Origin: an uncultured Planctomycetia bacterium
Lineage (GTDB): Bacteria > Omnitrophota > Gorgyraeia > Pluralincolimonadales > Pluralincolimonadaceae
DNA: 64,000 bases
Direction: 5' to 3'
Assembly (NCBI GenBank): GCA_964650515.1
Contig: CAZYUB010000001.1
Location: 1,726 to 65,725 of the forward strand
The position numbers and the translations under genes are program-made. Shown one piece after another: positions 4,031 through 55,965 of this stretch. Below the pieces are notes generated by a model. That model was given only the letters and a program-made list of their open reading frames with translations. It searched no databases and was not told the origin of the DNA. Each line of letters begins with the position of its first letter. Position 1 is the stretch's first letter.

Positions 4031-4067
4031 AAAAAAAATAGGGCGAGGATCTCGGGATCCCCGCCCC
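4031..4067 (-). terminator. Intrinsic terminator of gene 4113..4739
   Basis: GC-rich hairpin (gggcgaggatc…gatccccgccc) followed on the minus strand by T8. Confidence 0.65.
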
Positions 4068-4112: not shown

Positions 4113-4739
4113 TTATGACCTTTTCCTTAAGCCGAGGAGTCCGACAAGCCCTGAGCCGAGAAGGAGCAGGCTAGCGGGCTCGGGTACAGGCGCCGTATCA
4201 AGGTAAGCATCATCAAAATAAGCGACGCCTGTGCCGCCGTCTACGGTCTGGTTCACGAAGAAAGCCAGGGAAGCGTATGACGCGGTGACCGGTGCGGCTC
4301 CGCTTATATTAAGGGCTGTCCAGTCGTGCGTACCGGTAAGTACCGGGGACGCGCCGGCCGTGCCGACCCATCCGCCCGACGCGTTGAACCAGTCGATCTT
4401 CACGAAGGCCTCTTCGTTGACGAGAGCGTTGGTCTTCGCAAATATGGTCCCGTAATATGTCGTACCGGGCGTAACGGCCGCCATCGTATTGCTGTACATG
4501 AAATAATCGTCGCCGGTGCCGGATGCGCTGTTCGACGTTATCTTCGTCGATTGCGCGCCGGTCCTTGCGGCTTCGGTGCTGCCGTATGTGCCCGTATGCT
4601 GGCTGTTTCCCCAGAGGCCGAGCCACGGGTCCTGGGCCGTATTCTCAAAGCCCGAGTTCGTAAGCATATTAGCGGCTTCCGATATAGAAGCGCTGAACAT
4701 TACTGCTATAGCTAAGGCCAATACTGCGGTAAATTTCAT
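4113..4739 (-). CDS. Secreted CBM4_9-like protein with PEP-CTERM sorting signal
   Basis: Signal peptide, NSGFEN motif, C-terminal VPEPASLLLLGSGLVGLLGLRKRS. Confidence 0.8.
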   Translation of the reverse strand: MKFTAVLALAIAVMFSASISEAANMLTNSGFENTAQDPWLGLWGNSQHTGTYGSTEAARTGAQSTKITSNSASGTGDDYFMYSNTMAAVTPGTTYYGTIFAKTNALVNEEAFVKIDWFNASGGWVGTAGASPVLTGTHDWTALNISGAAPVTASYASLAFFVNQTVDGGTGVAYFDDAYLDTAPVPEPASLLLLGSGLVGLLGLRKRS

Positions 4740-4751
4740 CTCTCTTCTCCT

Positions 4752-5282
4752 TTAGTTTCCTTTTTCTATTGTCACGTCAAAATCGTCAAAACAGGCCTCG
4801 CCTGTTGAACCGGCTATGCCTCTTGCGTATCCGAGCACCCTTGCCTCGATCGCCCCGGCAGGCGCTTTTCCGTTGACTTCCAGCTTCTTCCAGGGTATGG
4901 CGCCTTTCACATGCTCGCTCTCTTTATGCCCCGAACTCAAAGGGCCTGCGCTGCCCCAGAACTCAAGGCGCACAAAGGCCTCGGCACCGTTAGACAGCGA
5001 CTTGGAATCCGGGCTCATCACCCACGCGCTGGCTTTGACTACCTCCCCGGGGCTGACCGGTATCTGCTGCCCATAGCAACCCTGCCCTGCACCTTCGATC
5101 TGCCTGCAAGCCGCCTTCTCCCCGCTGTATTTATACTCGGTTGTTATGATCCCGTTGGTCTCCTGGTCATTCCAGTTGTACCAGCTCTCCTCGTCGGATT
5201 CAAAACCGGGATTGATAACGGTATTGGCATAGCAAACGGAACATATCGACATAGTAATGACCGCCAGGAAAATCTTCTTCAC
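4752..5282 (-). CDS. Secreted CBM4_9-like protein without PEP-CTERM tail
   Basis: GTG start with GGGAGGTG RBS; signal peptide; NPGFESDEESWYNW motif; ends FDDFDVTIEKGN with no PEP anchor. Its stop is 12 nt upstream of the next paralog, indicating an operon. Confidence 0.7.
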   Translation of the reverse strand: MKKIFLAVITMSICSVCYANTVINPGFESDEESWYNWNDQETNGIITTEYKYSGEKAACRQIEGAGQGCYGQQIPVSPGEVVKASAWVMSPDSKSLSNGAEAFVRLEFWGSAGPLSSGHKESEHVKGAIPWKKLEVNGKAPAGAIEARVLGYARGIAGSTGEACFDDFDVTIEKGN

Positions 5283-5320
5283 TTGTTCACCTCCCTCCCT
5301 CTCCCATAAATAAGTTTATC

Positions 5321-6469
5321 TTAACTCAAATGTTTTACTTGTAAAATATACCATCCGTTGCCCATCGCCTCGTCGTCCTTCCTGAGCCATTCCCTGCAAT
5401 CCTGTATCTTCGCCTTGACGAGCCCCGCGACTATAATGTCTTTTGCGCTATATGCCCTGCCTGCGATCTCGTAACAGTTAAGCGCGACCTCCAGGTTCCT
5501 GCGGTCCCCGCTGACGAGCGGAACGCTTAAGCTCCTGACCTTGGACTTATATTCGTCGCCCATGTAAAAACAGATGCCGTAATACGACTTCCTGTCGTCA
5601 GCATCCTCGATACTTTTGATGAAGAGCAGTATCGCGTCCCTTTCGAGGTTACTATAAGGCACGAGGAAACCGGCTTTCTTCATCTGCTGGGACCTGGCCC
5701 GGTATTCGTTTATCCTCTTCTCAGCCGACAGACGTGTCTGCGGGCTTTGGGCGAAACGCGACGCCAGGTCGTAGCAGAGCGGAGCGATGCGGAAATAACC
5801 GAATTCGTCGTCCTCGAACCTTCCTATCTGCGCCCTTGCGGCATAGCAGTCCCCGAGATCTATATATCTTCTCGCGCAGGCCTCTTTCTCTTCGGCCGTC
5901 CCGAGCCCCGCTATTATCCCCGCGATAAGCTCGGAATCCTTTTTATTCGCGGGTTTTACTATCCCGCCGTTCGCGAATTCCTTTTTCATCTCGGCAAGGC
6001 CCATGGACGGGACGGAATTATCGCCATGGTCCATCTTTATTATCTTCTCCGCCCTCCTCTTTACCGTGTCTATGTACGCCATTTGGCTGGCCGCCAACTT
6101 TCCGTACGAAGGGTCTATGTCGATAGCCATCGAGAATTCCGCATCGGCGTGGTCGATCATGCTGTTCTCGAGGCAAAATATCCCAAGCTTATAATGGTCC
6201 TGGGCGCTGTTCGGGGATATCTCCTTCACCTTCCCGGCGTATACCTCCTCCGGGCCCGGCGCGGACTCGTCCTCCTTCCTCACGATCGAGGCGACGAGGC
6301 CCTTCTTTATCTTCTCCGTCGCCCCCGAAGCGCTCCTGAACTTCACGGCCGTATCCGTCTCATCCAGGACTTCTCCCTGCATTATCCCGCCGCTCCTCAA
6401 CAGGACCGTATCGGCATATGAGGGGCTTGATAAGGACAATATGACGAACACGATGATGTGCCTGTTCAT
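5321..6469 (-). CDS. Secreted hypothetical protein, 382 aa
   Basis: Signal peptide (…SSPSYA/DT). No family recognised. Translationally coupled to the GspK-like gene (1-nt overlap at 6469). Confidence 0.5.
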   Translation of the reverse strand: MNRHIIVFVILSLSSPSYADTVLLRSGGIMQGEVLDETDTAVKFRSASGATEKIKKGLVASIVRKEDESAPGPEEVYAGKVKEISPNSAQDHYKLGIFCLENSMIDHADAEFSMAIDIDPSYGKLAASQMAYIDTVKRRAEKIIKMDHGDNSVPSMGLAEMKKEFANGGIVKPANKKDSELIAGIIAGLGTAEEKEACARRYIDLGDCYAARAQIGRFEDDEFGYFRIAPLCYDLASRFAQSPQTRLSAEKRINEYRARSQQMKKAGFLVPYSNLERDAILLFIKSIEDADDRKSYYGICFYMGDEYKSKVRSLSVPLVSGDRRNLEVALNCYEIAGRAYSAKDIIVAGLVKAKIQDCREWLRKDDEAMGNGWYILQVKHLS

Positions 6470-8718
6470 CAGATATCCCCTTCCCTGTAATAGGATATAC
6501 GCACGTCGGGCAGATACGTTATCGTCACATCCTCAAGGGCGATCGTCTCGCTCAGGTACGGCTCGGTCCCGAGGCCGGAAGACGGTGTATCAAGAGTCGT
6601 AAAGTTCGCCCTGAACTGTATGCTCGGCGATGCCGGCGAAATGACCGCGCTTCCCGGAAGGATACCGGGAGACGGCAGGGTCCATGAGGCGCCTCCGTCA
6701 ACGCTTGTCTGGAAATACACGATCTCCGAAGCCGGATTCGCTCCCTGGCTGAGCGTCACGGTAGCCCCGATCGTCCCCCACCTGACATCCCCTTCCGGGC
6801 TCACGAACGGTTTTGATTCGAAATAACCTCCGTCCTGCGGGATGACCCTTATGCCGTCGGCCCAGCACATCGGCGTAGGCGTCATCATAGCGCCGTGCGC
6901 CTGCCAACCGACCTGCCCCGATGTATGGTTGCTCGTATAAGTATTATGGATATACCTCTGCAGCTCGGGCGGCCCGCCCTGCCTATAAGCGTAAAAATAG
7001 TGGTCGGTATCGGATAAGGTGACCGTTATCGAGGTGTTCGTGACATAATATCCGTTGCTGAGCCATCCGGTCATAAGGTTGCCCGGCCCGACCTGCGTCT
7101 GCATCTCCGCCCATGTCGTGTCGGCGGGAGGGTTGCCGTATTCCTGCTTCATCCTTACCGTATCGTCGCTGCCGAGCATGTGCCTGCTTAAGTTCATCAT
7201 CACGTCCCACTGCTTGTATTCATAACCCGTCACCTGCATCTTCCTGTATGGGGATATGCCGTCGGATACCGTCGCCCTGAAGGCAAACCTGTCCCAATCC
7301 AGTTCCGGCGGCAATGATGGCTGCTGCCCGAGGACCGTTATCGGGGCGTTGTAAGGCGCGACCATCTGCGGTATGAATACGAGCTCGTTCTTGCCGTCGG
7401 AATTTTCGTCCTTTATCGTGTTAGAGTCCGTCCGGGGGAACCAGAAATACGAAAGCCTGTTGCTCATCGACGCTTCCATCCAGCGCCCTTCGATATAGAA
7501 CATGGACGCGTCCCCGGAAAATGTGTCGTCCATATTGTCCCAGAAACCGTTCTTTACCGAGTCCGGGACGGTCCTGTAATCCGACCCGTGGTTCCAGCTG
7601 TTCACGGAATTTATCGTCTCGACCGGGCAGGAGTCGAGCGTGTTCGTCTTAAATGCGGCCGGGGCGGTGTCCCCGTCGCTGCCCTGAAAATGCTCTTTTG
7701 CGGTCTGGTTCAATATGCCGTAGATCCTTACGAGCGATACGGCCTTCTTTTTCGCGTTATCGGCAAGTCCTGCCGACTCTATCAGGTACCACCCTCCGGG
7801 ATGGAAGCAGAAGTCGGTCGTATAGCCCGCCGGCTTTACCCGGTTCGGGTTCGCGTTGTCTTTTATCTTCTGCCTGTCGTCGGCGTCCAGCGGAGGGGTA
7901 ACCGGTACGGTATCGATGAATCCCTCGAATTGGCGCCATCCGGTAAAAGGTGACGAGGCCCTGTACGCAAGGATCGCGCCGGCCAATGATTCGGCCTTCT
8001 CCCCGGTAATGACACCGGACAATACGGCCCTTAAGACCTGCGCGCTTGCCGTATTTATGTTAACCGGTGATTTCGGCATATAAGGTTCTCCGCGGACAGA
8101 GTCGTCGCTATTGGCGTCCACATAACCTACAACGGTTATATAATCTTTTATCGCGTCGAATTTTGTCCTGTCGATGGATGAATACACCATTATCTCTTCC
8201 GCGGTAATATATCCCGCGGCCGGGCGGTTGTCGGCTATCGACTGCCCGTCGCTCTCGGAAAGCGGCGATCCGACGGCCACGGCCAGGTTGCCCAGTATAT
8301 CCCTGATCCTCGCGTTGGGGTCGTTTATATTTATGCGGCCCGCGGAATCCGATATCCTGACCGCGAATGACGCCGGGACCCTTTCTCCGGACAGTATGCC
8401 GCTGGCCCCGTTTCCGATGACGCCGTCATATGCATCCAGTGAAGGATTGGCCGCGCCGGGATAAGCCCATTCGTCCAAAGGCATTGCATTGAAATCCGCG
8501 CCGGCGATCTCCCTCATGCGCGCTATTGCAAGCGCTATGCCGGCTTGCGCGGCATATATAGCTTTGGTATTGTCCCGGAAATTAGAGGCAAACTTGTATT
8601 CAGACACCGATAACATCGCAAATGACGTCGCTATAGCCGCCAACAGGGCCAACACGCAGACCGAAACGAGCAAGGCTGCACCGCGTTTCATCCCTTTTCT
8701 CACCAGGCCCATTTTCAT
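6469..8718 (-). CDS. Giant GspK/PilX-like minor pseudopilin (749 aa) with a large unknown C-terminal extension
   Basis: N-terminus KRGAALLVSVCVLALLAAIATSF…AAQAGIALA resembles the GspK hydrophobic segment and following helix. The internal PVNINTASAQVLRAVLSGV is the GspK helix-hairpin-helix NINTA motif. About 400 further residues have no recognisable family. Confidence 0.55.
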   Translation of the reverse strand: MKMGLVRKGMKRGAALLVSVCVLALLAAIATSFAMLSVSEYKFASNFRDNTKAIYAAQAGIALAIARMREIAGADFNAMPLDEWAYPGAANPSLDAYDGVIGNGASGILSGERVPASFAVRISDSAGRININDPNARIRDILGNLAVAVGSPLSESDGQSIADNRPAAGYITAEEIMVYSSIDRTKFDAIKDYITVVGYVDANSDDSVRGEPYMPKSPVNINTASAQVLRAVLSGVITGEKAESLAGAILAYRASSPFTGWRQFEGFIDTVPVTPPLDADDRQKIKDNANPNRVKPAGYTTDFCFHPGGWYLIESAGLADNAKKKAVSLVRIYGILNQTAKEHFQGSDGDTAPAAFKTNTLDSCPVETINSVNSWNHGSDYRTVPDSVKNGFWDNMDDTFSGDASMFYIEGRWMEASMSNRLSYFWFPRTDSNTIKDENSDGKNELVFIPQMVAPYNAPITVLGQQPSLPPELDWDRFAFRATVSDGISPYRKMQVTGYEYKQWDVMMNLSRHMLGSDDTVRMKQEYGNPPADTTWAEMQTQVGPGNLMTGWLSNGYYVTNTSITVTLSDTDHYFYAYRQGGPPELQRYIHNTYTSNHTSGQVGWQAHGAMMTPTPMCWADGIRVIPQDGGYFESKPFVSPEGDVRWGTIGATVTLSQGANPASEIVYFQTSVDGGASWTLPSPGILPGSAVISPASPSIQFRANFTTLDTPSSGLGTEPYLSETIALEDVTITYLPDVRISYYREGDI

Positions 8719-8761: not shown

Positions 8762-8795
8762 GCAAAAACTGGGCTGCCCTAAAAAACGGGCAGCC
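8762..8795 (-). terminator. Intrinsic terminator of gene 8808..10508
   Basis: Hairpin gggctgccc…gggcagcc followed on the minus strand by AGTTTTTGCC. Confidence 0.65.
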
Positions 8796-8807: not shown

Positions 8808-10508
8808 TTACGGGGCTTTTTCTAATGTAAGCGGATTAAACTTGTTCTTGGCGAATATGTACCACGAGGCCACGGACACCGTCCCCATATCCGGCCTGCT
8901 CCAGTTATAACCGCCTTCCCTGTTTGCCGTATAAGGTATCGTACGGCCCTTCGCCCCCTTGATATTCCTGTCGACGAGGAAGGCGTCCATCTGGTTGGCG
9001 TAGAAATACCCCCTCTCCCTGTCGCCTTCGGTAATATACGCGCACGCTATATGGCCGGTGCCGTCGAGCCATATATTGTTTACGTTTATATCGGCATGGT
9101 CGAAGAAGCCCATGACTTCCTTTCCGTTCACGTTCAGCGTCTTGCGGTACCTGAGGTCATATTCCGGGATATTCAGCAGGGCCGCCGATCCCCTGCCGTA
9201 TGCGAGGACCCTCCAGGTATAGTTATCCAGCGGAAGCGTGTTGCCTTTCAGCACCGAGTCGAGCCATACGCGTATCTTATCCGCATAGGCGTCCTCCTTG
9301 CAAAGTTTCAACGCGGCATAGCAGTCGATGTTGCCTTCGGGATGCCCGCCGTCCTCGTGGAGCTTCTTGTCCCCGCTCCTCCATCCGTGCTGTATATAAC
9401 CGCCCTTCCCTCCCGGATCGTCCTTATACCATGATATCAGCAGGTCTTTCAGCATCCCCGTGATATCCCTGTATCTCTCCGCCCCGTATTCCTTCTCATA
9501 ATATTTATACGCGATAAGCAGCCATGCCATGTCGCCCATCCAGCGGTCCGCCTTGCCGGGGTTATGGTATGCAGAGAGGTTCCCCTCGTTCCTGAGGTTG
9601 ACGTACTGGAAGAAACCTCTTGCCTCGCCCTTATAAAAGAAGTTCTGGTATGACGGGCACCTGTTCTTTACGACCGTGGACTCCGCGAAGAAATCGAGTA
9701 TACGTTCGGCTCTTTCTTTTTCTCCCTTCACGATGAACGCCATTGCCACAAGGGCGTTGTTGAAAGTATGGGCCTGGTTGTCTTCGGCCGTGGGCAGAAG
9801 TTGTTTTTCCGGAGAAAAATTATCCTGGCACAATTTGAGCCATTCCAATACGAGCGGGTCCTCGGGTATAAGCTCCGCGGCCCTTCTCTGTTTGAAACCT
9901 ATGCCTTTAAGCTCCCTGTCCGGGTCGAGCACCGGGCCCACGACCGAGAATGAGGCCGGCAGCCCCGGCTTGTCCAACCCTATCTCGTCCAGGTCCACCG
10001 TGCCTTTTCCTTTTCCGGAGAAAGCGATCTCGAGGTTGGCGAGTTTATCGAACTTATCATCCCCGCCCCACCCGTATTCAAGGTTATTCCTGTATACCAC
10101 GACCTGCGTCCAATCCGTGTATTTGCCCCTCAAAGGGAATTTCCTGAAGAATACGGAACCGTCCGCGTCGACCAGCTTGATCTCCATGTCCGAAGACGAA
10201 TCGGACTTGATCAGGAACGTCAAAGGGACATCCTCCGGCATCTTCTCCGTCATCTTCCTGCGCATAAGCACCCAGCCGTAATCGCCCCTGAGCTCATATA
10301 CCGCCCGGATACCGTCGTCCGGCTTCTCCGGTATGGGGGATATCTCTATCGTGCTCTTACCGTCCATATCGGCCTTCCATTGGCTAATGTCGTCCCAGCT
10401 CGCCTTAATGGGGGGTTGGGGCTGCTGCCCGGGTTTTTGCGCTTGCTCATACTCCTTGCAGCCGGATATTAACAGCAGGAACGCCGCCAGGCAGACAACC
10501 TTTTTCAT
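8808..10508 (-). CDS. Lipoprotein: N-terminal CBM/CIA30-like beta-sandwich plus C-terminal (alpha/alpha)6 six-hairpin glycosidase-like domain
   Basis: Lipobox LLISGC. C-terminal half (…NTFNNALVAMAFIV…WYIFAKNKFNP) is homologous to the N-terminal half of the 14086..15843 protein, and its N-terminal beta-rich domain to the other's C-terminus. Fold assignment is by pattern only. Confidence 0.45.
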   Translation of the reverse strand: MKKVVCLAAFLLLISGCKEYEQAQKPGQQPQPPIKASWDDISQWKADMDGKSTIEISPIPEKPDDGIRAVYELRGDYGWVLMRRKMTEKMPEDVPLTFLIKSDSSSDMEIKLVDADGSVFFRKFPLRGKYTDWTQVVVYRNNLEYGWGGDDKFDKLANLEIAFSGKGKGTVDLDEIGLDKPGLPASFSVVGPVLDPDRELKGIGFKQRRAAELIPEDPLVLEWLKLCQDNFSPEKQLLPTAEDNQAHTFNNALVAMAFIVKGEKERAERILDFFAESTVVKNRCPSYQNFFYKGEARGFFQYVNLRNEGNLSAYHNPGKADRWMGDMAWLLIAYKYYEKEYGAERYRDITGMLKDLLISWYKDDPGGKGGYIQHGWRSGDKKLHEDGGHPEGNIDCYAALKLCKEDAYADKIRVWLDSVLKGNTLPLDNYTWRVLAYGRGSAALLNIPEYDLRYRKTLNVNGKEVMGFFDHADINVNNIWLDGTGHIACAYITEGDRERGYFYANQMDAFLVDRNIKGAKGRTIPYTANREGGYNWSRPDMGTVSVASWYIFAKNKFNPLTLEKAP

Positions 10509-13063: not shown

Positions 13064-14086
13064 TCAGGAGGGCTTGACGGACTCTCTGCGAATGTATTCC
13101 GGAGTGAAAATTACCGTATCGTTCTCTATCTTTTTTCCCGATACTATATCCAATAACATCTGCGCGGCGGTCTTGCCAATCTCGACCAGCGGAAGCCTCA
13201 TGGAACTCAATGTCGGAGATCCCGGCGGAAAAGGGAACATGTCGTTGAAACCTATTACCGAAATATGCTCGGGGACCGAAAGGCCGTCGTCACGTATCCT
13301 TCTTATCGCGGCAAGCGCCATGACGTCGTCCGAAGCCACTATGCCGGTGATCCTCGGCTCCTGCTTCAACAGGATACCGGTAGCTTCGTATGCTTTTTCG
13401 TAGATAAACAGCCCTTCGGCCACAAGGTTTTCGTCGAATCCCGCGCCCGCTTCGGATAACGCCTTTTTGTATCCCGCAAGCCTGTCCTGGTCGAGCTGGA
13501 ACCTTAACGCGCCGCTGAGGAACGCTATCCTTTTATGGCCGGTGTCGAGCAATTCCTTCGTCGCCCTGAAAAGGCCTTCCTTGTTATCTATCAGGACCTT
13601 GGGTATCTTCGCCTCCTTTATGTACCTGTTCACGAGCACTACCGGGAACTTCTTTTCGAAAAGCGTCATCACATCCTTCTCGAGGGCTTCTTCGACGAGT
13701 ATGCACATGCCGTCGACCCTTTTTTCTTCGAAGGCCTTCATGTAATACGGGGAAAGCGGTTCTTCTTTCGGCTTTATCGCACGGGTCAACTGGAAATAAT
13801 AACCGTTCTTCTCCAGCACTCCGGCAATGCCGCTGACTACGTGGCTGAAATACGAATAATATATGTCCTCGAAATCTTTTACCACTACGGCGATGTTGAA
13901 TGTCTTCCTGCTGACAAGGCTGCGGGCTATCACGTTAGGCGTGAAATCAAGGTCCGCGACCACCTTGCTGACACGCTCCTGCGTCTTCTTGCCCACCTTC
14001 TGGAGGTCCTTACCGTTTATGACCCTCGAGACGGTGCTTATGGATACTTTCGCTTTTTTGGCTATGTCTTTATATGTATATGCCAT
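13064..14086 (-). CDS. LacI-family transcriptional regulator
   Basis: N-terminal HTH (YKDIAKKAKVSISTVSRVINGK) and periplasmic-binding-fold effector domain. Its ATG overlaps the TAA of the upstream glycosidase-like gene. Confidence 0.85.
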   Translation of the reverse strand: MAYTYKDIAKKAKVSISTVSRVINGKDLQKVGKKTQERVSKVVADLDFTPNVIARSLVSRKTFNIAVVVKDFEDIYYSYFSHVVSGIAGVLEKNGYYFQLTRAIKPKEEPLSPYYMKAFEEKRVDGMCILVEEALEKDVMTLFEKKFPVVLVNRYIKEAKIPKVLIDNKEGLFRATKELLDTGHKRIAFLSGALRFQLDQDRLAGYKKALSEAGAGFDENLVAEGLFIYEKAYEATGILLKQEPRITGIVASDDVMALAAIRRIRDDGLSVPEHISVIGFNDMFPFPPGSPTLSSMRLPLVEIGKTAAQMLLDIVSGKKIENDTVIFTPEYIRRESVKPS

Positions 14087-15843
14087 TAATTAAGGTATAT
14101 CCTGTGCAGGTTGACCGCGGAATTCCCGCTGCAATCTTCCACCCTCACCTCAAACGTGATCTTCCTCACGCCTTCCCTGTCGAATAAGCCGTTCCCGTAA
14201 TTCTGCAATTCCGGGCTTCGCCTGAACCCGTCCTTCAGGTCCAGGGAAAAATGTTCGAGCTCCCCGCCATAAAGGTATATCGGTATGCTTTCAAAGGGCT
14301 CGCCTTCCCTGTCATACGCTTTAACCTTCATGGACATTTTCTGCGCGCTGCTGGAAAGCTCCAGGTTCAATTTACCGTATTTGCCCCAGTCCTGCGGACA
14401 GAGAAAAGGACGGCTGACCGTACCCCAACAGGCCTTCGCCGACTCCTCCGGCTCGATGGTTATCTTCATCGTATTTACGAGTTTGCCCGTTGATGACGCC
14501 GCAGGCGCCAATTTCCTTGATATCCTGCAGTGCCCCGCCGAGACCATCTCCGACGGATATGCCGTCTCGAACTTTATGCTGCCGTATGTGAAATCGTCTA
14601 TTACGGGGACGAACTGGAAAGCGGGCTTATAATCGATGCTGTCTACTATCTTATTCGCTCGCTCCTCATCCTGCCCCATCGAAAAGGGGTTGAAGTCCTC
14701 CTTCGCGAATATATACCAGCAGGTGCTCGATATGCAGAGCGGCCGGTCCTGCATTACCCAGCTGCCGTAGGCGGTCGTACCCTCATTCGTCGCGTACGGC
14801 AATGCCGAAGCGTTCTTATGGACCGAACTGGCCGTAAGCGCTTTGTCCAGCTCCGACAGGAAATGCGCGCTCTCCTCCTTCCTGCCGGCCCTGTCGAATG
14901 CGAGGGCCATCTGGGCCGTGCCTTCCAGCCATATGGAATCCTTGTCCGGATAATGTGACTTTTCGTAGGTGGAACCGAAATCGAAACCCTCTATCTCGAC
15001 CCCGTTGACCTTATACATCTTCTTCGTCAAACTCTTGTCTATCGCGAAATCGAGCGTGGGCCCGTAAGCGCTCCCGAGTGCCAAGACCGCCCAGCTCGAC
15101 TGGTCGGTCGCGAAATTAGGGTTGTCCCTGCCCATGTTGAACCTGTTCTGCTCTTTGTTCCAGGCGGCGTTCTCCATCCAGAATTTTATCTCTTTCGCGA
15201 CGCCGAGGCACCGCATATCGCCGGTAAGGACGCCGAGGTCCCTGAACGCGGCATAAGAGTCGAGGTTATGTTCGACCGATATCCATGTCATCGGCTCCCC
15301 GTTGCCGTAATACCCGCCGATAACGCCACCCTCTATCGACTGAAGCGACATCAGCCATTCCACGAGCGTCTCCGCGAGATCCGAATACCTCGTATCTTTC
15401 GAGACATACGTATAATGGTTGATCGCTATGAGCATCCACGCGTTCGGGCCCGCGGCCCAGGTTTCTCCCCAGCGCCCGTCCTTGCGGTAGGCGTCGCTGA
15501 ACCCTATGAATTTTCCGTATTTCTTTATCTCCTTGCGGTAAGTGCCGTCAAAGAAATCGAGCACCTGCCTTGCCTTTTTCAGGTCACCGCGGGAAGTAAA
15601 GGCGATAACGGCAAGGGCCTGGTCGTAGGTAAAACAATCCGTCCCGCCTTCATAGCTCGGAAGGAGCCCCTCAGTAAAGAAGATCAAGCGACGGTTCGAT
15701 TCCTGCTGCGCGACAAGCCACCTGTATGCCTTGTCCACGTTATCATCCCGAGCGGGGCCGCCGGGGTCCTGCCCCCATCCTGAGGGCCCGGCGCAGAGCG
15801 CGCACAGCAGCACCGACGCCAAAAATGCGCGTATCTTATTCAT
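14086..15843 (-). CDS. Secreted (alpha/alpha)6 six-hairpin glycosidase-like protein with a C-terminal CBM/CIA30-like beta-sandwich
   Basis: Signal peptide from the internal ATG (the track ORF extends to 15897). DQALAVIAFTSRGDLKKARQVLDFF… and CWYIFAKEDFNPF are shared with the 8808..10508 protein, with the domain order swapped. Confidence 0.45.
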   Translation of the reverse strand: MNKIRAFLASVLLCALCAGPSGWGQDPGGPARDDNVDKAYRWLVAQQESNRRLIFFTEGLLPSYEGGTDCFTYDQALAVIAFTSRGDLKKARQVLDFFDGTYRKEIKKYGKFIGFSDAYRKDGRWGETWAAGPNAWMLIAINHYTYVSKDTRYSDLAETLVEWLMSLQSIEGGVIGGYYGNGEPMTWISVEHNLDSYAAFRDLGVLTGDMRCLGVAKEIKFWMENAAWNKEQNRFNMGRDNPNFATDQSSWAVLALGSAYGPTLDFAIDKSLTKKMYKVNGVEIEGFDFGSTYEKSHYPDKDSIWLEGTAQMALAFDRAGRKEESAHFLSELDKALTASSVHKNASALPYATNEGTTAYGSWVMQDRPLCISSTCWYIFAKEDFNPFSMGQDEERANKIVDSIDYKPAFQFVPVIDDFTYGSIKFETAYPSEMVSAGHCRISRKLAPAASSTGKLVNTMKITIEPEESAKACWGTVSRPFLCPQDWGKYGKLNLELSSSAQKMSMKVKAYDREGEPFESIPIYLYGGELEHFSLDLKDGFRRSPELQNYGNGLFDREGVRKITFEVRVEDCSGNSAVNLHRIYLN

Positions 15844-16495
15844 TAGACAATATGAAATCATCCAGGTATACGGTCGCTCCCGGGCCGTTGCCCACATCCG
15901 CTCCGAAGGCTATGCCGATATTGTCGAGCGACTTTACGTCTATGCCTGATTTGCGCAGCTCGGCTACGGATATCGTTATCTTCTTCCATTCCTTCGTGGC
16001 CGATTCAACCGATATCTTTGCCTGCGGCATATAGCTCGGCGCATGGCTGTCCCTGAGGACTATTTCCATGTTCTCTCCGCCGTTCTCACCCTTTACCCAG
16101 AATTCTATGCTCTTGAAACCGGACACATCCTTGCTCTTGACCTTCTTCGGGACGGGGACAGCATCGGTGACCTGGCCCATGTCTATAGAAAAACTACCCC
16201 ACGTCTCCGACTTCTTGCTTCCGAGGGCGTTGACGAGGCGGAACGACTGCTTGCCGCTATGGACGTTCTTCATGTCATACCCGGGTACGTTCGGGGAATA
16301 GTACCAGCTGAACGGCGTGTTCTTGTCTTCCCAGTTGGGTTCCAGAGACCCGTATACCCCGACCTCGCCCCCGAGATTGTTCGGATGGCCTTCAAAATCC
16401 GCTATGACGGTAATGCTTTCTTCGGAAAACGATTGCCCGGGAACAAAAAATAACACGGCGGCTATTGCCGCTATAAGAAATATCTGTCCTTTCAT
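15836..16495 (-). CDS. Secreted CBM11/CIA30-like beta-sandwich protein
   Basis: Signal peptide. Residues around EFWVKGENGGENMEIVLRD and ATVYLDDFIL suggest a carbohydrate-binding-like beta-sandwich fold. No PEP-CTERM tail. Confidence 0.45.
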   Translation of the reverse strand: MKGQIFLIAAIAAVLFFVPGQSFSEESITVIADFEGHPNNLGGEVGVYGSLEPNWEDKNTPFSWYYSPNVPGYDMKNVHSGKQSFRLVNALGSKKSETWGSFSIDMGQVTDAVPVPKKVKSKDVSGFKSIEFWVKGENGGENMEIVLRDSHAPSYMPQAKISVESATKEWKKITISVAELRKSGIDVKSLDNIGIAFGADVGNGPGATVYLDDFILSNE

Positions 16496-17380: not shown

Positions 17381-18031
17381 TTAGAGGTAATCCGGAAGGA
17401 CCTTTACCGCTTCGCGTATGAACTTCCTGCATCTTTCGAGCGCGGCTGTCGTGTCGTTATCCGTTATGGCTGTCCATACCCTTATGGCCGACCCGCCGCT
17501 CTTGCCGCCCTTGAGCTGGTTGATGACGAAATACAACTGCTGCCTGTAGAAATTCTCCGTCATTACATCTCCGGCGGTGTACCAGTCAAGCATCAGCACC
17601 TTGTTCTTCGATATCTGGTAGATCGACTCGTTGGCCGACATTGCCTTCCCCCCTCCAAGGTCGATATCCGCCTTTCCCTGCGTGAGCATCTCGGTGCGGC
17701 CGCTCCCGAGATAGCAATATTCCGGAGGATGGAAACTCTGCCTCTTCTGGTCCGAATATACCACCTGCATCGACACCCTTTCGTTACCAGGCCCGAGGTA
17801 GGTGCGTATCAACACTTTGTCCGTCCCGAGGACCTCGTATACCTGTTTCAGGTATTCTTTGTCCTTGAACTCGACGTTCGTCCCCTTCCACCCGGAGACG
17901 TTCATCGGGAAGGACATCAGCCTTACTTCGCGCGCCGGTGCCCTTTTGATCGACGACATGAAAAATACCGCGGCCGCGCACACGGTGAGCATGGATACGG
18001 CAATTATCGTATTTAGGTCTTTTTTGTCCAC
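17381..18031 (-). CDS. epsI: EpsI-family exosortase-associated protein
   Basis: ~215-aa protein with a single N-terminal TM, overlapping and directly downstream of the exosortase gene. Matches the EpsI (methanolan-locus) family by architecture. Confidence 0.6.
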   Translation of the reverse strand: MDKKDLNTIIAVSMLTVCAAAVFFMSSIKRAPAREVRLMSFPMNVSGWKGTNVEFKDKEYLKQVYEVLGTDKVLIRTYLGPGNERVSMQVVYSDQKRQSFHPPEYCYLGSGRTEMLTQGKADIDLGGGKAMSANESIYQISKNKVLMLDWYTAGDVMTENFYRQQLYFVINQLKGGKSGGSAIRVWTAITDNDTTAALERCRKFIREAVKVLPDYL

Positions 18032-18849
18032 GACAACACTCTCCCTGCTAATATCAATCCCGCTATCGCGAATACATATACAAGGAAACCGAGAAAATCA
18101 TGCGCAAAGGTCCCCGGGGACGCCGCCTTTGCGTCATAAGCGAACGCTATGAGCAAAAGGAGCACGATCCGGATTATATTCGCCCCTAGGGCGATGGGTA
18201 TGGACAGCGCGAATATCACGATCTTCTTGACCGTTGACATCTTGATCAGATAAGCGTAAAGGGCGCCTAAGGCGGTCAGGGCTATCAGCGAACTTAGGCC
18301 GCTGCAGGGGCTGCCTATAGTCAGGAACGTATCCGGCCTCAAGTGCACGATGCTGCCGTCCCTGACGGCCGGGACCCCCATAAGGTTGATCATGAACGTC
18401 GCCGCCTGCGCGGCCATCATCTTCATCTTGAAACTTACGCTTATTATGAAGACCTGCGGCAGCGGGATCATGAACACAAGGAACAGGATCGCGAACGCTA
18501 TCTTCCTCGTTATACCCGAGCCGTAAATGTAAAGCGATAGCCCAAACAACGCAAATATAAGCGTGAACCCGGAGATGAAGTTGATCTCGAAAAAATACGC
18601 GAACAGGTGCAGCAGGAGCGCCGGCAGGAACAGCGCCAAACCGATACCGAGGGGTTTTATTTCCGTGTTCTTTAGCTCGTTCCTTTTCAGCCAGACCAGG
18701 TACGCGAAAACGAAGGGAACGAGGTAACCGTGCGAATAATAGGTGTCGGCTTCTTCAAAGCGCGCCATCATCCAGATGAAAGTCGGCCAGTAGACCGCTA
18801 TCAAAAGAGCTCCGACTATGAAAGGCCCGAACCTGGATATAGTTCTCAT
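18013..18849 (-). CDS. Exosortase (XrtA/EpsH family)
   Basis: 278-aa polytopic membrane protein with ~8 TM helices, sized and organised like exosortases, surrounded by 6 PEP-CTERM substrates and EpsI. Confidence 0.75.
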   Translation of the reverse strand: MRTISRFGPFIVGALLIAVYWPTFIWMMARFEEADTYYSHGYLVPFVFAYLVWLKRNELKNTEIKPLGIGLALFLPALLLHLFAYFFEINFISGFTLIFALFGLSLYIYGSGITRKIAFAILFLVFMIPLPQVFIISVSFKMKMMAAQAATFMINLMGVPAVRDGSIVHLRPDTFLTIGSPCSGLSSLIALTALGALYAYLIKMSTVKKIVIFALSIPIALGANIIRIVLLLLIAFAYDAKAASPGTFAHDFLGFLVYVFAIAGLILAGRVLSWTKKT

Positions 18850-19701: not shown

Positions 19702-20544
19702 TTATTTGCTTTCTTTTTCCGCTTCCTGTTTAAGCATGAACAGGTTCGCGGTGCTCAAGAATACCAGGGAATCGGTAATGAAAGATACGATTATGCCCGC
19801 GGCAAGTATATACAACGTTATCTCCGGGAAAGTCAGGTTCATCAGCCCCTGCTGCTTCTGCTTGACCAGCATGAACAACACTTCCAGCAGCCTCGGGAGG
19901 AATACGAGCAATACGGTAGTAAAAAAGACGCGCTTTACGACGCCGAAAGACCGCGCGATCGCCCCGAACACTCCCCTGCGCTCTATCATCAACGCCGGAT
20001 ACGCATATATGAAAAGCGCTTCCACGAGGAACGCGACCGCTATGCCCGTGTACGACAATACCTGCAGCAGCATTACCGACGAAGACGTCCGCTGCATCGT
20101 GGAGGTTATTACCCAGGTCGGCGCCTTGAGTATGACAAATGACAGGATGTATATGACCGCCCATATGCCGAGCAGCGCGAAGTACCTTCTTGCCGCCCTG
20201 TTGAAGCTCCCGAACGCACGCACGCCTTCACCTTCGGAATGCGCCTGCGAGACCATCGTGACCGCCATACCGTACATTATCACGCCGAAGATGACCATGA
20301 CGACCACCTGCCCGTAATAAAAAAGGGTCGGGAGGATGTTGAAATTATACGGATAGTGCAGGTAGGCCGCGCCGAAGATATTCTTTATGGGCTGGGCAAA
20401 TATTGCCGTGAACGGAGGACGCGGGGAATAGAACAATACCGTAAGCACAATGCCTTCAAAAACCGCCTTAAGCAGGAACGGCAGCAGGACGGCCGGATAT
20501 TTCGCGATCATCCTGAAAGTTATCGCCCAAACGGTCCTAATCAT
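19702..20544 (-). CDS. Polytopic membrane protein of unknown function (first gene of the exosortase operon)
   Basis: 280 aa, ~7 TM helices, no recognised family. Lies 4 nt upstream of the TPR lipoprotein gene. Confidence 0.4.
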   Translation of the reverse strand: MIRTVWAITFRMIAKYPAVLLPFLLKAVFEGIVLTVLFYSPRPPFTAIFAQPIKNIFGAAYLHYPYNFNILPTLFYYGQVVVMVIFGVIMYGMAVTMVSQAHSEGEGVRAFGSFNRAARRYFALLGIWAVIYILSFVILKAPTWVITSTMQRTSSSVMLLQVLSYTGIAVAFLVEALFIYAYPALMIERRGVFGAIARSFGVVKRVFFTTVLLVFLPRLLEVLFMLVKQKQQGLMNLTFPEITLYILAAGIIVSFITDSLVFLSTANLFMLKQEAEKESK

Positions 20545-21046
20545 TCTCGAACGACTTCTTTATTACCAATATTTTCTTCTTGAGGTCGGCTTCCTGCTTT
20601 TCGTCGTCAACGAACGATACGCCGATATCATATTTTTCCGGTTCCTGCTCCGCCGGGGACTTGACCCAGCTGACCTTTACCAGCGTCTTTACCGGCTCTA
20701 TATCGTTGCCGGGCATTATATCCAGTGTTATATGCATCTCAGGAACCAGGTCCTTATTGAACTCTTCGCCGTTTCCGTTATCTTCCTTAAGCCTGCATTT
20801 CGAATTATGGACCCATCCGAGGCAATTCGAGCAGCTGTCGCAATGCCATGAGCGCGGCCACTCAAGCAAGGCACCCCCCTCACTTAAGTTCTTTGCTTTC
20901 AATGGGATATCGCCGGAAATATCCGTCTTCTTTTGAGGATCTACAAGCTTCCCTTTAATAGCAACATTTATTTCGACACGTTTAAACTTTCTGCGTTCCA
21001 AGTTTTTCTCCTTGTACACCAAATTTAGAAGTTCAGTATAACACAA
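20537..21046 (-). CDS. PilZ-domain c-di-GMP-binding protein
   Basis: N-terminal RRKFKRV (RxxxR) and D-x-S-x-x-G-like LSEGGALL motifs characteristic of PilZ. Confidence 0.6.
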   Translation of the reverse strand: MCYTELLNLVYKEKNLERRKFKRVEINVAIKGKLVDPQKKTDISGDIPLKAKNLSEGGALLEWPRSWHCDSCSNCLGWVHNSKCRLKEDNGNGEEFNKDLVPEMHITLDIMPGNDIEPVKTLVKVSWVKSPAEQEPEKYDIGVSFVDDEKQEADLKKKILVIKKSFEND

Positions 21047-34256: not shown

Positions 34257-35114
34257 TTAAAGGTGCCGGTGAATATACTCGGGAATATGGTATTCTATGC
34301 CTGTAAGGACATATCCTAGGATATTCGCACCGACACTTTTTAGCACGCTTTCCGCGCGCGCCACGACTTCCCTGCGGGTCCTTCCCGCCCTTATGACCAG
34401 CACCGTCCCATCCGCGATATGGCTTAATATACGGGCGTCGGAATACGGTATGACTGCCGGCGTATCCAGAATTATCCTGTCGTACTTGCCTTTGAGCTCG
34501 AACAGAACGTCTTTCATCTTCTGAGAGCTGAGCAATTCATTCGGGTTGCCGTGAATATGCCCGGCGGGGATGACAAAAAGATTCTTAGTGTCGCATGCCA
34601 CTAATACGCCGGAGATGTCCGACGAGCCGGACAATAATTCACCGAGCCCCTTTTCCGAGGATATGCCCATCAGGCCTCCGATAGAAGGCCTCCTGAGGTT
34701 GCAATCGATAAGAAGCGTGGGTTTCCCGGAATTTTGCGCCGTGACAACGGCCAGGTTGGCCGCTGCAACACTTTTCCCTTCTCCGGTTGACGCGCTCGTG
34801 ATGATAACAGACCTAAGTTTGCTTTCCCTTTCGGGGCAGAATATATGCGTATATATCGTATGGAACTGCTCGGCTACGGGACTGCCGGGATTATGGTATG
34901 CTACTATCTTCTTGTTTACTCCCGACGACAGAACGGCCTCCGCGCGGACCTGCGACGGCGCATCAACTGCAGGGCGCTGCGCTACAGGCGGGTTGCCAGC
35001 GGACGGAGCGGCCTGCGGAGTCGCCGGGCCGGACTGGAAGGCCTTGCCTTTTTCCTCCGCTGCCCTTTTTATGGCTTCGTTTATCTTGTTTATCCCGTTG
35101 CCGTTATCTTGCAT
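34257..35114 (-). CDS. Polysaccharide co-polymerase tyrosine autokinase (BY-kinase/CpsD-like ATPase domain)
   Basis: Walker A SASTGEGKS, Walker A' LLIDCNLRRP and Walker B RIILDTPA. Confidence 0.7.
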   Translation of the reverse strand: MQDNGNGINKINEAIKRAAEEKGKAFQSGPATPQAAPSAGNPPVAQRPAVDAPSQVRAEAVLSSGVNKKIVAYHNPGSPVAEQFHTIYTHIFCPERESKLRSVIITSASTGEGKSVAAANLAVVTAQNSGKPTLLIDCNLRRPSIGGLMGISSEKGLGELLSGSSDISGVLVACDTKNLFVIPAGHIHGNPNELLSSQKMKDVLFELKGKYDRIILDTPAVIPYSDARILSHIADGTVLVIRAGRTRREVVARAESVLKSVGANILGYVLTGIEYHIPEYIHRHL

Positions 35115-36735
35115 TCTTCTGCACCCCTGCTGCCTTTTCTTTGTTTGCGACCTCGATCACTTTTCTCCTGACCTCATCCTGGCTTACGTTATAGCTGATG
35201 GCGGCTATGGTAAAGAGTGTCACGTACAGGACTATCAAAAATATGGCGAGACCGCGCTGCTTGGCCGCTTTTGCGGCCGCCTCATTCTTGTCTACGATAG
35301 CGGAGATCCCGCCGAATATTTCATGTTTAAGGAAGGGCCTTGCGTCCTCCACACCCCTGAAGGAATGGTCCGCGAACTCCGCCAGGAAGACACATCCGAA
35401 GCCGGAGATGACGCCGAGTAGGAAAGCGACTATCCCTATTATCAGGACTTCAGGTTTTGAGGGTTTGAGCGGCAGCCTCGGCTCGTCGATTACCGTATAT
35501 TTAGTGCTCTTCTCCTGCGCTTCGGCGGATGCAAGCCTGTTCTCTTCGATCTTCAGCATAAGCATCTTGTACACGTTCTCGTTGACCTCGGTATCCCTGG
35601 TCAAAAGCGCGAGCTCCCTCTCCTGCTCGGGCAATGTCTGTATCTTCGATTCGTATTCCTTGACAAGCTTCAGGAGCTGCTCCCTTCTCTTCTTGAGGTC
35701 ATTGACCTCCTTCTCAGCGTCTTTTACTTTCTGGCTTAGGCGCTGGAAGAATAACGGGGCCGTCGTCGACGTGTCGCTGTCGACCATCTTCTCCGTCTCC
35801 AGCCGAAGATTCTCCCTTACATCCTCCATCTGGACCTGGAGGGAAGCGAGATCCGATGATTCCGGCTTTTCCGCCATCATTTGGTCGTACTGTGATTGCA
35901 GGCTCTGCAATTGGGAATTAAGGCGTGAAACCGCGGGATTGAGCTCCATGAGCTCTTCGGATATGATAACCGGGTCCCTTCCCGACATTTGCCTTTTCAG
36001 CAGGTCGAGTTTGCGTTCGGATTCCTTGAGGTTCATCTCGACAGCGGTAAGCGACGTCTGGTAGCTTGTCAGCATTGAGACGTTATAGTCGAGTTCTTTG
36101 CCGGGCAGCTGCATCGGGTATTGCGCGCGGAAATCGAAAAGTTTCTTTTCGGATTCCTCGAGCTTCTTCTTGTATACTTTCGCCTGCTCTTCCGCGAATT
36201 TTATAGCCGTCGCCGCCTGCGTGGTCTTCTTTGTCTTATTCTCGTCGATGAATATCTCGATTATCGTTTTTGTGACGTTCCTTGCCGCGATGGGATCCTT
36301 GTCCTCATAGGATACCTGGAAGACCTCGGGGGACCTCATCTTTACCTCGGAGCGTTTCCTTATGCCCATGAGCATCTTTTCGTACATGACCTGGTCGGTC
36401 ACGCCCTTGTCGAGGCCGAGGGTCCTGACGAGGGTCAGCAGGTGCGGATAACTCAATATTTTTTCTGTCAGTGTCTTCAGCTGTTCGGCAAGCGTCGGGG
36501 GCTGGCCGGTAGCGGAGGTATATACGGGCTCTTTCGTGGCTAACGGATTGACCGGCTTCTCTTCCTCCACCAGGATGAGGACCGAGGACCTGTAATACTT
36601 GGGCAGGAAGAAGCTTCCAATAGATGCGGTAAAGAATACGATGACAAAGGGCAGCATGAAAAACCATTTGCGGTGGAATATGATCTGGAGATAATCCCTG
36701 ATAGAACCCTGCCCCTGCCCAGGCGCCGTAGTCAT
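35104..36735 (-). CDS. Polysaccharide chain-length determinant (Wzz/PCP-like, PEP-CTERM locus type)
   Basis: N-terminal TM, long coiled-coil periplasmic domain and C-terminal TM. Adjacent to the autokinase. Confidence 0.65.
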   Translation of the reverse strand: MTTAPGQGQGSIRDYLQIIFHRKWFFMLPFVIVFFTASIGSFFLPKYYRSSVLILVEEEKPVNPLATKEPVYTSATGQPPTLAEQLKTLTEKILSYPHLLTLVRTLGLDKGVTDQVMYEKMLMGIRKRSEVKMRSPEVFQVSYEDKDPIAARNVTKTIIEIFIDENKTKKTTQAATAIKFAEEQAKVYKKKLEESEKKLFDFRAQYPMQLPGKELDYNVSMLTSYQTSLTAVEMNLKESERKLDLLKRQMSGRDPVIISEELMELNPAVSRLNSQLQSLQSQYDQMMAEKPESSDLASLQVQMEDVRENLRLETEKMVDSDTSTTAPLFFQRLSQKVKDAEKEVNDLKKRREQLLKLVKEYESKIQTLPEQERELALLTRDTEVNENVYKMLMLKIEENRLASAEAQEKSTKYTVIDEPRLPLKPSKPEVLIIGIVAFLLGVISGFGCVFLAEFADHSFRGVEDARPFLKHEIFGGISAIVDKNEAAAKAAKQRGLAIFLIVLYVTLFTIAAISYNVSQDEVRRKVIEVANKEKAAGVQKNAR

Positions 36736-36738
36736 GGA

Positions 36739-40517: not shown

Positions 40518-40604
40518 TGGTGCCGGGAGAGGGGGTCGAACCCTCATAACCTTGCGGTCGCGAGATTTTAAGTCTCGTGCGTCTGCCAGTTCCGCCATCC
40601 CGGC
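40518..40604 (-). tRNA. tRNA-Leu (anticodon TAA), type II with long variable arm, CCA encoded
   Basis: Reverse complement GCCGGGATGGCGGAACTGGCAGACGCACGAGACTTAAAATCTCG…GGTTCGACCCCCTCTCCCGGCACCA, 87 nt. Confidence 0.85.
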
Positions 40605-40618: not shown

Positions 40619-40693
40619 TGGAGGCGACGATCGGAATCGAACCGATGCATCGCGGTTTTGCAGACCGCTCCCTTACCACTTGGGTACGTCGCC
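40619..40693 (-). tRNA. tRNA-Cys (anticodon GCA), CCA encoded
   Basis: Reverse complement GGCGACGTACCCAAGTGGTAAGGGAGCGGTCTGCAAAACCGC…GGTTCGATTCCGATCGTCGCCTCCA, 75 nt. Confidence 0.85.
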
Positions 40694-41634: not shown

Positions 41635-41649
41635 CCTCTTCCTGTTCAT
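41239..41649 (-). CDS. Pseudopilin (prepilin N-terminal domain plus DUF1559-like), copy 2, identical to copy 1 after residue 7
   Basis: [15 protein letters not shown]…, 136 aa. Confidence 0.75.
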
Positions 41650-41664
41650 GTCCCCTCCTCTTTT

Positions 41665-53960: not shown

Positions 53961-53976
53961 TGTTCCACGTGGAACA
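53961..53976. promoter_or_regulatory. parS centromere-like site (TGTTCCACGTGGAACA), abutting the parA start codon
   Basis: Perfect 16-bp palindrome differing from the parS consensus TGTTTCACGTGAAACA only by a symmetric C/G pair. ParAB are encoded adjacent. Confidence 0.7.
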
Positions 53977-54000
53977 TTCTAAACGCAGTCCCTTTTTTTG

Positions 54001-55948: not shown

Positions 55949-55965
55949 CCTAATGCCTTCGCCTG

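Follow-up and report, generated by a model that had tools for sequence, protein, structure and literature searches.

Described pilin systems and the locus under study

Minor (pseudo)pilins of the GspK class, which lack Glu5, cap the filament, as was established for GspK/XcpX and discussed in PMC9934059. In this work we analyzed a 64,000-nt stretch of contig CAZYUB010000001.1 (hereafter the window), which encodes on its minus strand, at 6469..8718, a protein of 749 amino acids (aa) that appears in the list of open reading frames (ORFs), passes the Pfam cut-offs for T2SSK and PilX_N and is, according to its predicted fold, a GspK. We call this modular GspK-like minor (pseudo)pilin GspKL; it carries a predicted lectin-like domain, is encoded together with a secreted protein containing tetratricopeptide repeats (TPR), and may serve as an alternative tip of a type IV pilus (T4P) or of a filament resembling that of type II secretion systems (T2SS). 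Its likeness to GspK/XcpX (PDB 3CI0, 5VTM; PF03934) comprises the hydrophobic N-terminal helix, the prepilin-like site and the lack of Glu5, as well as the position of the GspKL genes of relatives after those of GspG-, GspI- and GspJ-like proteins. GspKL differs from GspK/XcpX in being more than twice as large, with two extra C-terminal β-domains, in that its machine in the relatives has PilM-PilN instead of GspL/M and a dedicated TPR partner, and in that the window copy is encoded outside any machine operon.

Modular pilins have been inferred to be widespread (PMC8179133). In Streptococcus sanguinis, PilC is a tip-located modular pilin composed of a pilin, an Ig-like and a concanavalin A (ConA)-like lectin module, and PilB is composed of a pilin and vWA (PMC9934059). 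GspKL shares with PilC a functional module of ConA-like fold grafted C-terminally on a pilin, and the tip location and glycan binding would be expected of it as well; PilC, however, is a short canonical class III pilin of a monoderm, whereas GspKL possesses a full GspK-type module and belongs to a diderm phylum. Unlike the described modular pilins, GspKL has a lectin domain that is invisible to sequence signatures, and multiple paralogous GspKL cassettes are present per genome in loci containing carbohydrate-related and PEP-CTERM genes. Modular pilins with a lectin module are therefore already known, while the GspK-type carrier, the signature-invisible lectin fold, the TPR partner and the dispersed cassettes set GspKL apart; our literature searches retrieved no description of lectin-bearing GspK cassettes with a TPR partner in carbohydrate/PEP-CTERM loci.

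Large tip minor pilins with C-terminal β-domains and a co-encoded secreted protein are also represented in type IVb pili (TcpB/TcpF and CofB/CofJ; PMC10120004), but TcpB and CofB do not possess the GspK fold and form homotrimers (PMC10120004), and TcpF and CofJ are exported colonization factors recognized via a disordered N-terminal signal, whereas the GspKL partner is a TPR protein retained with each paralog. The PilX-PilY1 pair of type IVa pili is similar in that the gene of a GspK-equivalent minor pilin is followed by that of a non-pilin tip-associated protein and that the tip is adhesive; PilY1, however, is a β-propeller adhesin of ~1,100 aa and PilX is small, whereas GspKL unites the pilin and the putative adhesive module in one protein, and the next gene encodes a TPR protein of 350-430 aa. 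Verru_Chthon cassette protein A (TIGR02600) is very large, has a PilX/GspK-like N-terminus and is encoded with prepilin-type proteins; GspKL matches it weakly at the N-terminus, with E 6.8e-5 and 20.9 bits against the cut-off of 332, and is not a member of this family. Finally, the PEP-CTERM/exosortase (EpsH) system (PMC1569441) resembles the locus in that the 208-aa product of the GspKL operon and at least four neighbors carry PEP-CTERM signals, with exosortase, EpsI and an exopolysaccharide (EPS) locus adjacent; GspK-like pilins, however, are not a described component of this system, and GspKL itself bears no PEP-CTERM signal.

Predicted domain architecture of GspKL

The architecture of GspKL, in which a GspK module is followed by a ConA-like domain and a β-sandwich, is well supported by structure prediction. 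The GspK module (aa 1-345; 7684..8718, minus strand) comprises a hydrophobic α1 helix, a β-sheet of pilin type and, as an insertion, an α-domain that carries two helix-hairpin-helix (HhH)-like motifs. Pfam PF03934 (T2SSK) scored 36.7 bits against the cut-off of 24.2 at residues 219-258 (PVNINTASAQVLRAVL...; 7945..8064, minus strand), the match spanning NINTASAQVL and covering 35 of the 63 profile positions, and PilX_N scored 26.9 bits against 25.5 at residues 12-62; HHH_3 stayed under its Pfam cut-off on this protein. Residues N220, N222, T223 and A224 are invariant or nearly so across the family. At the cleavage-type site KRG↓AALLV the position +5 is occupied by Val, not Glu, the family consensus KKG↓VALIx likewise has no Glu, and the GFxxxE class III signal motif (TIGR02532, IPR012902) gave no NCBIfam match in the protein. 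The true start is possibly Met10 (nt 8691), judging from the N-termini of the family and from the gene call of the ortholog in a relative, L067 (GCA_028718735.1), which is 93% identical to the window copy and begins with MKRGAALLV; an exact look-up found no identical 749-aa protein on record.

An AlphaFold2 (AF2) model based on 22 homologs had XcpX and GspK as its top fold matches, but its residues 393-623 had a predicted local distance difference test (pLDDT) value below 50, so that its C-terminal matches were unreliable and the model was replaced by one based on 60 sequences (pLDDT 90.5, predicted template modeling score 0.87). In the fold search the N-terminal module showed the GspK/XcpX fold: its α1 helix is long, and its β-sheet is interrupted by an α-domain, which in the model carries the HhH-like motifs. 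Profiles and predicted structure thus agree with an earlier note on this DNA, which had recognized GspK features in the first ~350 residues, and the absence of structural likeness to GspK that would have refuted it did not occur.

Past residue 260 no Pfam or NCBIfam profile matched, including Laminin_G_3, CBM66 and DUF1080-type profiles. The same note had described this half as rich in G, T, S and aromatics (8.3, 9.5, 9.2 and 12%, respectively), which was reproduced, and as having no recognizable family, which holds for sequence profiles but not at the structure level, since the 60-sequence model folds the C-terminal ~400 residues into two β-domains. The first of them (aa ~346-628; 6835..7683, minus strand) is predicted to be a jelly roll of the ConA-like lectin/glucanase fold: it displays the β-jelly-roll sandwich of the ConA-like superfamily and matched soybean agglutinin in Foldseek with E 2.5e-5. 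The edges of this domain are conserved, the family motifs CPV...KxGFWDN and WxDxIRIIP being present in the window copy as CPV...KNGFWDN and WADGIRVIP, and its core is hypervariable. Residues 401-615 are the least conserved of all, with a majority-residue fraction of 0.21-0.24 versus 0.43-0.59 in the GspK module, and the identity between paralog classes is 20-22% in the core versus 42-53% in the α-domain. An enzymatic function similar to that of glycoside hydrolase family 16 (GH16) was rejected, as the ExDxxE motif of GH16 type is found nowhere in the protein, which makes a binding role likelier than catalysis. The second domain (aa ~629-749; 6472..6834, minus strand) is a conserved β-sandwich with strands at 631-748 (pLDDT 85-97), ending in the motif SETxxLEDVTITYLP; solved structures described as carbohydrate-binding modules (CBMs) matched weakly (E ≥ 0.03), presumably to this part of the model.

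P0022, a PA14-domain protein of 775 aa from a metagenome-assembled genome (MAG) of Dehalococcoidales and hence of a different phylum, lacks a pilin module but has in common with GspKL (E 1e-14 and 1e-6) the terminal β-sandwich as well as both ends of the ConA-like domain, from which it follows that the C-terminal module exists outside pilins too.

The four-gene operon and the TPR partner of GspKL

Four co-directional genes extend from 8718 to 4113 on the minus strand. GspKL is followed by the genes of the 382-aa secreted TPR partner (5321..6469), of a 176-aa secreted CBM_4_9-like protein without a C-terminal sorting signal (4752..5282) and of a 208-aa CBM-like protein (4113..4739) with a PEP-CTERM signal at aa 184-207 (nt 4119-4190). 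The stop of GspKL and the start of the 382-aa gene overlap by 1 nt in the junction TGATG, exactly as anticipated; the two further gaps measure 38 nt (382-aa/176-aa) and 12 nt (176-aa/208-aa), each containing a GGAGG- or AGGAG-type ribosome-binding site, and the 176-aa gene starts with GTG preceded by GGAGG. Two terminator-like hairpins on the minus strand bracket the block: a G+C-rich one with a T-run at 8772..8795, which closes the upstream 566-aa gene and marks the 5′ boundary of the operon, and one with a 12-bp stem and a T-run at 4040..4067, immediately after the 208-aa gene, which marks the 3′ boundary. A weak promoter-like site follows the first hairpin (8795-8772) at 8765-8738. Considering the bracketing hairpins, the 1-nt overlap and the short gaps, the four genes are most simply predicted to form one operon, transcribed as a single unit. 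The whole block recurs in L067, where synteny with the window extends from the exosortase to beyond the four genes at 86-98% aa identity, so that the conservation sought in related genomes was indeed found; the L067 ortholog of the 176-aa protein is 94% identical, with CBM_4_9 weak there in Pfam as well.

The 208-aa product is recognized as PEP-CTERM/exosortase cargo by Pfam PF07589 (28.6 bits vs cut-off 20.7) and NCBIfam TIGR02595 (24.2 vs 16), and EpsH is encoded in the same window.

The 382-aa protein starts with a signal peptide that can be cleaved (...SYA↓DTV) and contains TPR-like repeats besides a small β-domain at its N-terminal end. As a single sequence it has no Pfam match, and NCBIfam Lepto_7_Nterm was reached with 43.1 bits against the cut-off of 43. 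A profile of the partner family (A3) searched against PDB retrieved consensus TPR proteins (1e-28) and BamD (2.6e-5), and PilF-type TPR proteins weakly. In L004, a machine operon, the gene next to GspKL on its downstream side is homologous to the partner (37% identity, E 3e-76), as is the equivalent in L001 (E 6e-14), a further value for partner homology being E 1e-7; the shorter post-GspKL gene of GH26-type loci matches the C-terminal half of the partner (hhalign probability 94%), and that of L049 matches its N-terminal domain (probability 97%). In the B2 loci GspKL is succeeded by a ~281-aa gene without detectable relation to the partner family. In L017 GspKL is duplicated in tandem, and the partner is duplicated alongside. 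By these comparisons the secreted, co-transcribed 382-aa protein, which had been noticed at this locus before, is an obligate TPR partner of the family and not a locus-specific cargo; probably it functions as a periplasmic chaperone or assembly factor.

GspL was considered for the 382-aa gene because of its position after GspK, and rejected: the product carries TPR repeats and its signal peptide is cleavable, and PilM-PilN comes next in machine operons. A pilotin role (PilF/PilW-like) is not favored either, as no lipobox is present and a separate TPR gene adjoins the secretins of machine operons.

Distribution of GspKL and its gene neighborhoods

A word search in a set of 5.8 billion proteins gave 22 GspKL clusters, and 68 clusters (50% identity), nearly all with proteins of 650-950 aa, matched the C-terminal half among 1.8 billion representatives; when the 60-sequence alignment served as the query, the proteins retrieved were essentially unchanged, apart from one new weak match. 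A scan of GTDB species genomes yielded 58 loci, mostly under Candidatus Omnitrophota titles, with two from Auribacterota and the remaining ones bearing automatic binning labels, such as 'uncultured Planctomycetia'. The family is thus nearly restricted to Candidatus Omnitrophota, where it is multi-copy. Public records name its members GspK, PulK, ComEA-like or hypothetical.

About 23 of the 58 loci are machine operons with the layout GspE(-GspE)-GspF-GspG-small prepilins-GspKL-350-430-aa protein-PilM/PilN fusion-...-secretin(s), and GspKL homologs stand next to GspI/GspJ-like and core genes in some 20 loci besides L001 and L004. Surveys of Omnitrophota class such clusters as type-4a pili (T4aP; PMC10066038). 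This machine-operon home implies that the giant GspK derivative, real as it is, is not special to the four-gene operon but is the ordinary GspK-slot protein of the T4P/T2SS-like operons of Omnitrophota. In the MAGs JBAZJG01, CAZAEH01, CBDUVS01 and PLNR01 there are 2-4 GspKL loci, of which, by context, one per genome is of machine type and the others lie outside the machine.

The copies outside machine operons fall into recurring neighborhoods. The window-type one, 566-aa lipoprotein-GspKL-partner-CBM176-CBM/PEP-CTERM, is also found in L006, L009, L019, L067 and the P0002 contig. The others read M48 peptidase-CBM11/PEP-CTERM-GspKL-partner-GH26(+CBM9)-CBM30-GntR-type regulator-GH94, GspKL-281-aa protein-CBM/PEP-CTERM-regulator-~785-aa protein-CBM30-like proteins, and UDP-GlcNAc epimerase-small secreted CBM-like protein-GspKL. 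Genes of LacI/GntR regulators are frequent neighbors, flanking non-machine copies in L009, L012, L016 and the B2 loci. In the fetched loci, ORFs with PEP-CTERM made up 14 of the 140 within three genes of non-machine copies versus 4 of 531 elsewhere (Fisher odds ratio 14.6, p 2.4e-7, related loci being counted as independent), and nearby PEP-CTERM was seen in 13/31 non-machine loci versus 0/23 machine loci. In a neighbor-joining tree the carbohydrate-linked copies are distributed over at least four separate clades, and the window copy groups with L006, the machine-encoded L004, L009, L014, L016 and L019. The repeated association of non-machine copies with PEP-CTERM, CBM and glycoside-hydrolase genes is a suggestive pattern, and, together with the modeled ConA-like and β-sandwich extension, lends weight to the previously voiced idea that the pilus tip binds a substrate.

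A second giant protein with a GspK-like N-terminus (951-990 aa, weak PA14 match) is encoded in machine operons of the relatives together with its own secreted protein (L001 6158-9909; L017 6217-10007; L051 5227-9888). The secreted follower measures 298-299 aa in L001 and L017 and 559 aa in L051, and a weak Beta_helix Pfam match was recorded for that of L001. This pair is located just upstream of GspKL and its partner, and L017 has three such pairs in tandem.

Proposed function and alternative explanations

We propose that the window encodes an alternative lectin-bearing pilus-tip cassette tied to a carbohydrate locus and binding glycan, a reading which we consider about evenly balanced between true and false. 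GspKL and the TPR partner constitute a two-gene cassette that in Omnitrophota normally occupies the pilus operon's GspK slot; in the window the cassette lies outside any machine operon and is predicted to be co-transcribed with a free CBM-like protein and with a CBM-like protein anchored through PEP-CTERM/exosortase. When the island is expressed, the alternative tip subunit would prime or cap filaments of a machine encoded elsewhere, with the TPR partner acting as a periplasmic chaperone or assembly factor. Since GspK-class subunits cap the filament, the two extra domains of GspKL would be displayed at the tip of a T4P/T2SS-like filament and would bind glycan there, which is the most likely job in view of the neighbor genes, the lectin-type fold and its variable core, the hypervariable core of the lectin domain presumably setting the specificity. 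The carbohydrate specificity of the pilus would thereby equal that of the CBM proteins on the cell surface, and the pilus could capture a substrate or a partner cell, with every carbohydrate locus contributing a tip of its own.

Several observations weigh against this proposal. GspE, GspF, GspI/J, PilMN and prepilin peptidase are all missing from the 64-kb window, so that the coupling of GspKL to a filament machine rests on the relatives only; the link that the earlier note had suggested to the window's own secretin and prepilins, or to the export of exosortase cargo, found no support in the window, real as these genes proved to be. The NCBIfam GspK equivalog NF037980 was not reached (48.4 bits vs cut-off 130), and as the size and the operon context in the window also depart from those of GspK, we file the protein as a GspK-class modular minor pilin and not as an orthodox GspK. 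Between the ConA-like domain and lectins the sequence identity is only 6-13% in every case, residues for sugar binding were not identified in it, and ConA-like folds are found in hydrolases and protein-binding domains too. The two small proteins had been called CBM-like, and whereas the PEP-CTERM signal of the larger one stood up, their CBM_4_9 (Pfam PF02018) scores, 24.8 bits for the 176-aa and 19.2 bits for the 208-aa protein, stay under the cut-off of 25.9. To these points the non-independence of related loci in the enrichment test has to be added. A PDB sequence search with the CBM-like genes reached E ~0.4 only, with chains named 'S-layer associated multidomain endoglucanase', and PDB sequence searches with the 566-aa, 603-aa and 208-aa proteins gave nothing usable.

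The main rival is cargo recognition, which we regard as somewhat unlikely. According to it GspKL would cap a T2SS-type endopilus or a T4P, and the lectin domain and the β-sandwich would bind periplasmic cargo encoded alongside, which the filament would carry through a secretin as it extends; this would connect exosortase cargo to outer-membrane export; candidates for such cargo are the 176-aa CBM protein, the TPR protein and processed, possibly glycosylated, PEP-CTERM proteins. The tip subunit of T2SS indeed has the GspK fold, both the 382-aa and the 176-aa product are Sec-signal proteins without membrane anchors, PEP-CTERM genes are enriched beside non-machine copies, a secretin is embedded in the exosortase/EPS locus of the window, and each GspKL, including the tandem pairs of L017, has a dedicated secreted partner. 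There are also precedents: the tip minor pilin TcpB binds and exports the co-encoded TcpF, CofB and CofJ behaving alike (PMC10120004), and GlyGly-CTERM/rhombosortase substrates, e.g., VesB, are T2SS cargo (PMC6219818). However, the partner is also present in machine operons without cargo-like neighbors and therefore looks like an assembly factor, not cargo; the machine operons have PilM-PilN and are classed as T4aP in the surveys (PMC10066038); the use of T2SS by PEP-CTERM proteins is without evidence; and the lectin fold indicates glycan binding more directly.

A more far-reaching version of the proposed tip cassette, in which one T4P/T2SS-like machine is served by a library of interchangeable GspK-lectin and TPR tip cassettes located in carbohydrate/PEP-CTERM loci and switched by local sugar-responsive repressors, and in whose stronger form the tips hand exosortase-processed PEP-CTERM cargo to a secretin, appears unlikely to us.

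It could also be argued that the organism's sole GspK-slot pair was merely moved off the pilus operon, the CBM/PEP-CTERM adjacency being meaningless. L004, which is the closest among the machine-encoded relatives, possesses the same pair (40% identity for GspKL, 37% for the partner) and belongs to the same tree clade, no second GspKL copy is present in the window, and PEP-CTERM genes are plentiful around the exosortase anyway (5 in 17 kb). Such a split is nevertheless improbable, as machine and non-machine copies are held together in CBDUVS01, JBAZJG01, CAZAEH01 and PLNR01, GspKL and the CBM genes are predicted to share one transcript with a terminator on either side, similar neighborhoods recur in independent clades and the synteny is kept in L067.

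A filament-independent membrane lectin, with the GspK-like helix as an inner-membrane anchor only and a role in the periplasm, for example in handling, jointly with the TPR partner, EPS or PEP-CTERM proteins that are glycosylated, would suit the lack of nearby assembly genes, the EPS/exosortase region and the frequency of TPR partners in periplasmic polysaccharide export (the partner profile weakly matches BamD and PilF-type TPR proteins), but is highly improbable, because the complete GspK fold, α-domain and pilin sheet, is kept at 42-59% majority identity, which argues for selection on filament incorporation, and because the ancestral context of the family is the pilus operon.

To our knowledge, modular pilins are a proposed source of filament versatility and the known examples are single genes within pilus operons; with the tip cassette proposed here, locus-specific pilus tips become a concrete hypothesis for the functional range of type IV filaments. 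We also know of no described outer-membrane export step for PEP-CTERM cargo, and the recurrent PEP-CTERM adjacency provides a specific candidate for how exosortase cargo might reach the surface. Should the tip-cassette library exist, it would be a pilus-based counterpart of the locus-specific glycan capture by SusD in the polysaccharide utilization loci of Bacteroidota, and its stronger form, the hand-over of PEP-CTERM cargo to a secretin, would fill in the outer-membrane step that the PEP-CTERM pathway lacks. Omnitrophota are uncultured, and pili are central to their proposed attachment or predatory lifestyle (PMC10066038); GspKL proteins are candidate specificity determinants for what their cells bind.

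Surroundings of the operon in the window

The operon occupies the distal end of a co-directional island headed by exosortase EpsH (18013-18849, minus strand; Pfam 201 bits) and EpsI (17381-18031, minus strand; 103 bits). After EpsI the island continues with a PEP-CTERM protein, a CBM30-like protein, a 603-aa protein (14086-15897), a LacI-family regulator (13064..14086, minus strand; Pfam LacI and Peripla_BP), PEP-CTERM proteins, the 566-aa lipoprotein and the four-gene block, followed by one more PEP-CTERM protein. The 566-aa lipoprotein (8808..10508, minus strand) is a conserved upstream neighbor, preceding GspKL in L006, L067 and the P0002 contig, and the 603-aa protein is its paralog (26% identity, E 2e-25). 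The lipoprotein belongs to an unannotated widespread family of conserved secreted proteins with more than 400 homologs at 50-60% identity, all annotated as hypothetical and without a Pfam domain, under source labels that include Omnitrophota, Verrucomicrobiota, Planctomycetes, Hydrogenedentota, KSB1, Bacteroidota, Elusimicrobiota and one Vibrio; certain members carry sorting domains of the type IX secretion system.

Between 2849 and 17259, downstream of the exosortase, there are at least eight small secreted paralogs, ~175-223 aa in length and with NLLxNxGFE as a common N-terminal motif, of which five bear PEP-CTERM; putative surface lectins are thus arrayed here at unusual density, and the paralog at 15836-16495 scores above the Pfam CBM30 cut-off.

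Upstream of the exosortase an EPS locus encodes glycosyltransferases, Wzy, Wzx, Wzz/GNVR and a kinase-like ATPase, along with a secretin and a GGDEF regulator. The secretin (36739-38358), noticed earlier from the letters alone, is of full length (STN, N0, Secretin_N and Secretin domains) and lies inside the exosortase/EPS locus, between a response-regulator-GAF-GGDEF protein and the Wzz/GNVR chain-length protein (region 35104-40387). Among the genes scanned no Wza-type exporter was seen, and this secretin could be an export channel for polysaccharide or PEP-CTERM cargo. A PilZ-domain protein (20537-21046; borderline, 22.6 bits) and a GGDEF diguanylate cyclase (38345-40387) flank the EPS/exosortase genes, which suggests control of the locus by cyclic di-GMP.

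The pseudopilins noticed along with the secretin are three tandem GspG-like prepilin genes (40762-42069) with the class III motif (TIGR02532). The first two copies, with a period of 477 nt, agree fully over 300 nt, and the third is 70-78% identical; the trio is flanked by tRNA-Leu (40518-40604) and tRNA-Cys (40619-40693), with coaBC on the opposite side and no adjacent assembly genes.

The genes parB, parA, gidA/mnmG, yidC and dnaA are clustered at 52310-59885, and the sign of the GC skew flips at ~58-60 kb, which indicates that the window spans the chromosomal replication origin region; given this location and the even GC content, an origin from a mobile element or phage was dropped. At the other end of the window, tRNA-Val (GAC) at 2643-2719 overlaps the 5′ end of a mechanically called threonyl-tRNA synthetase ORF (915-2687), so that the real start of thrS must be located further downstream.

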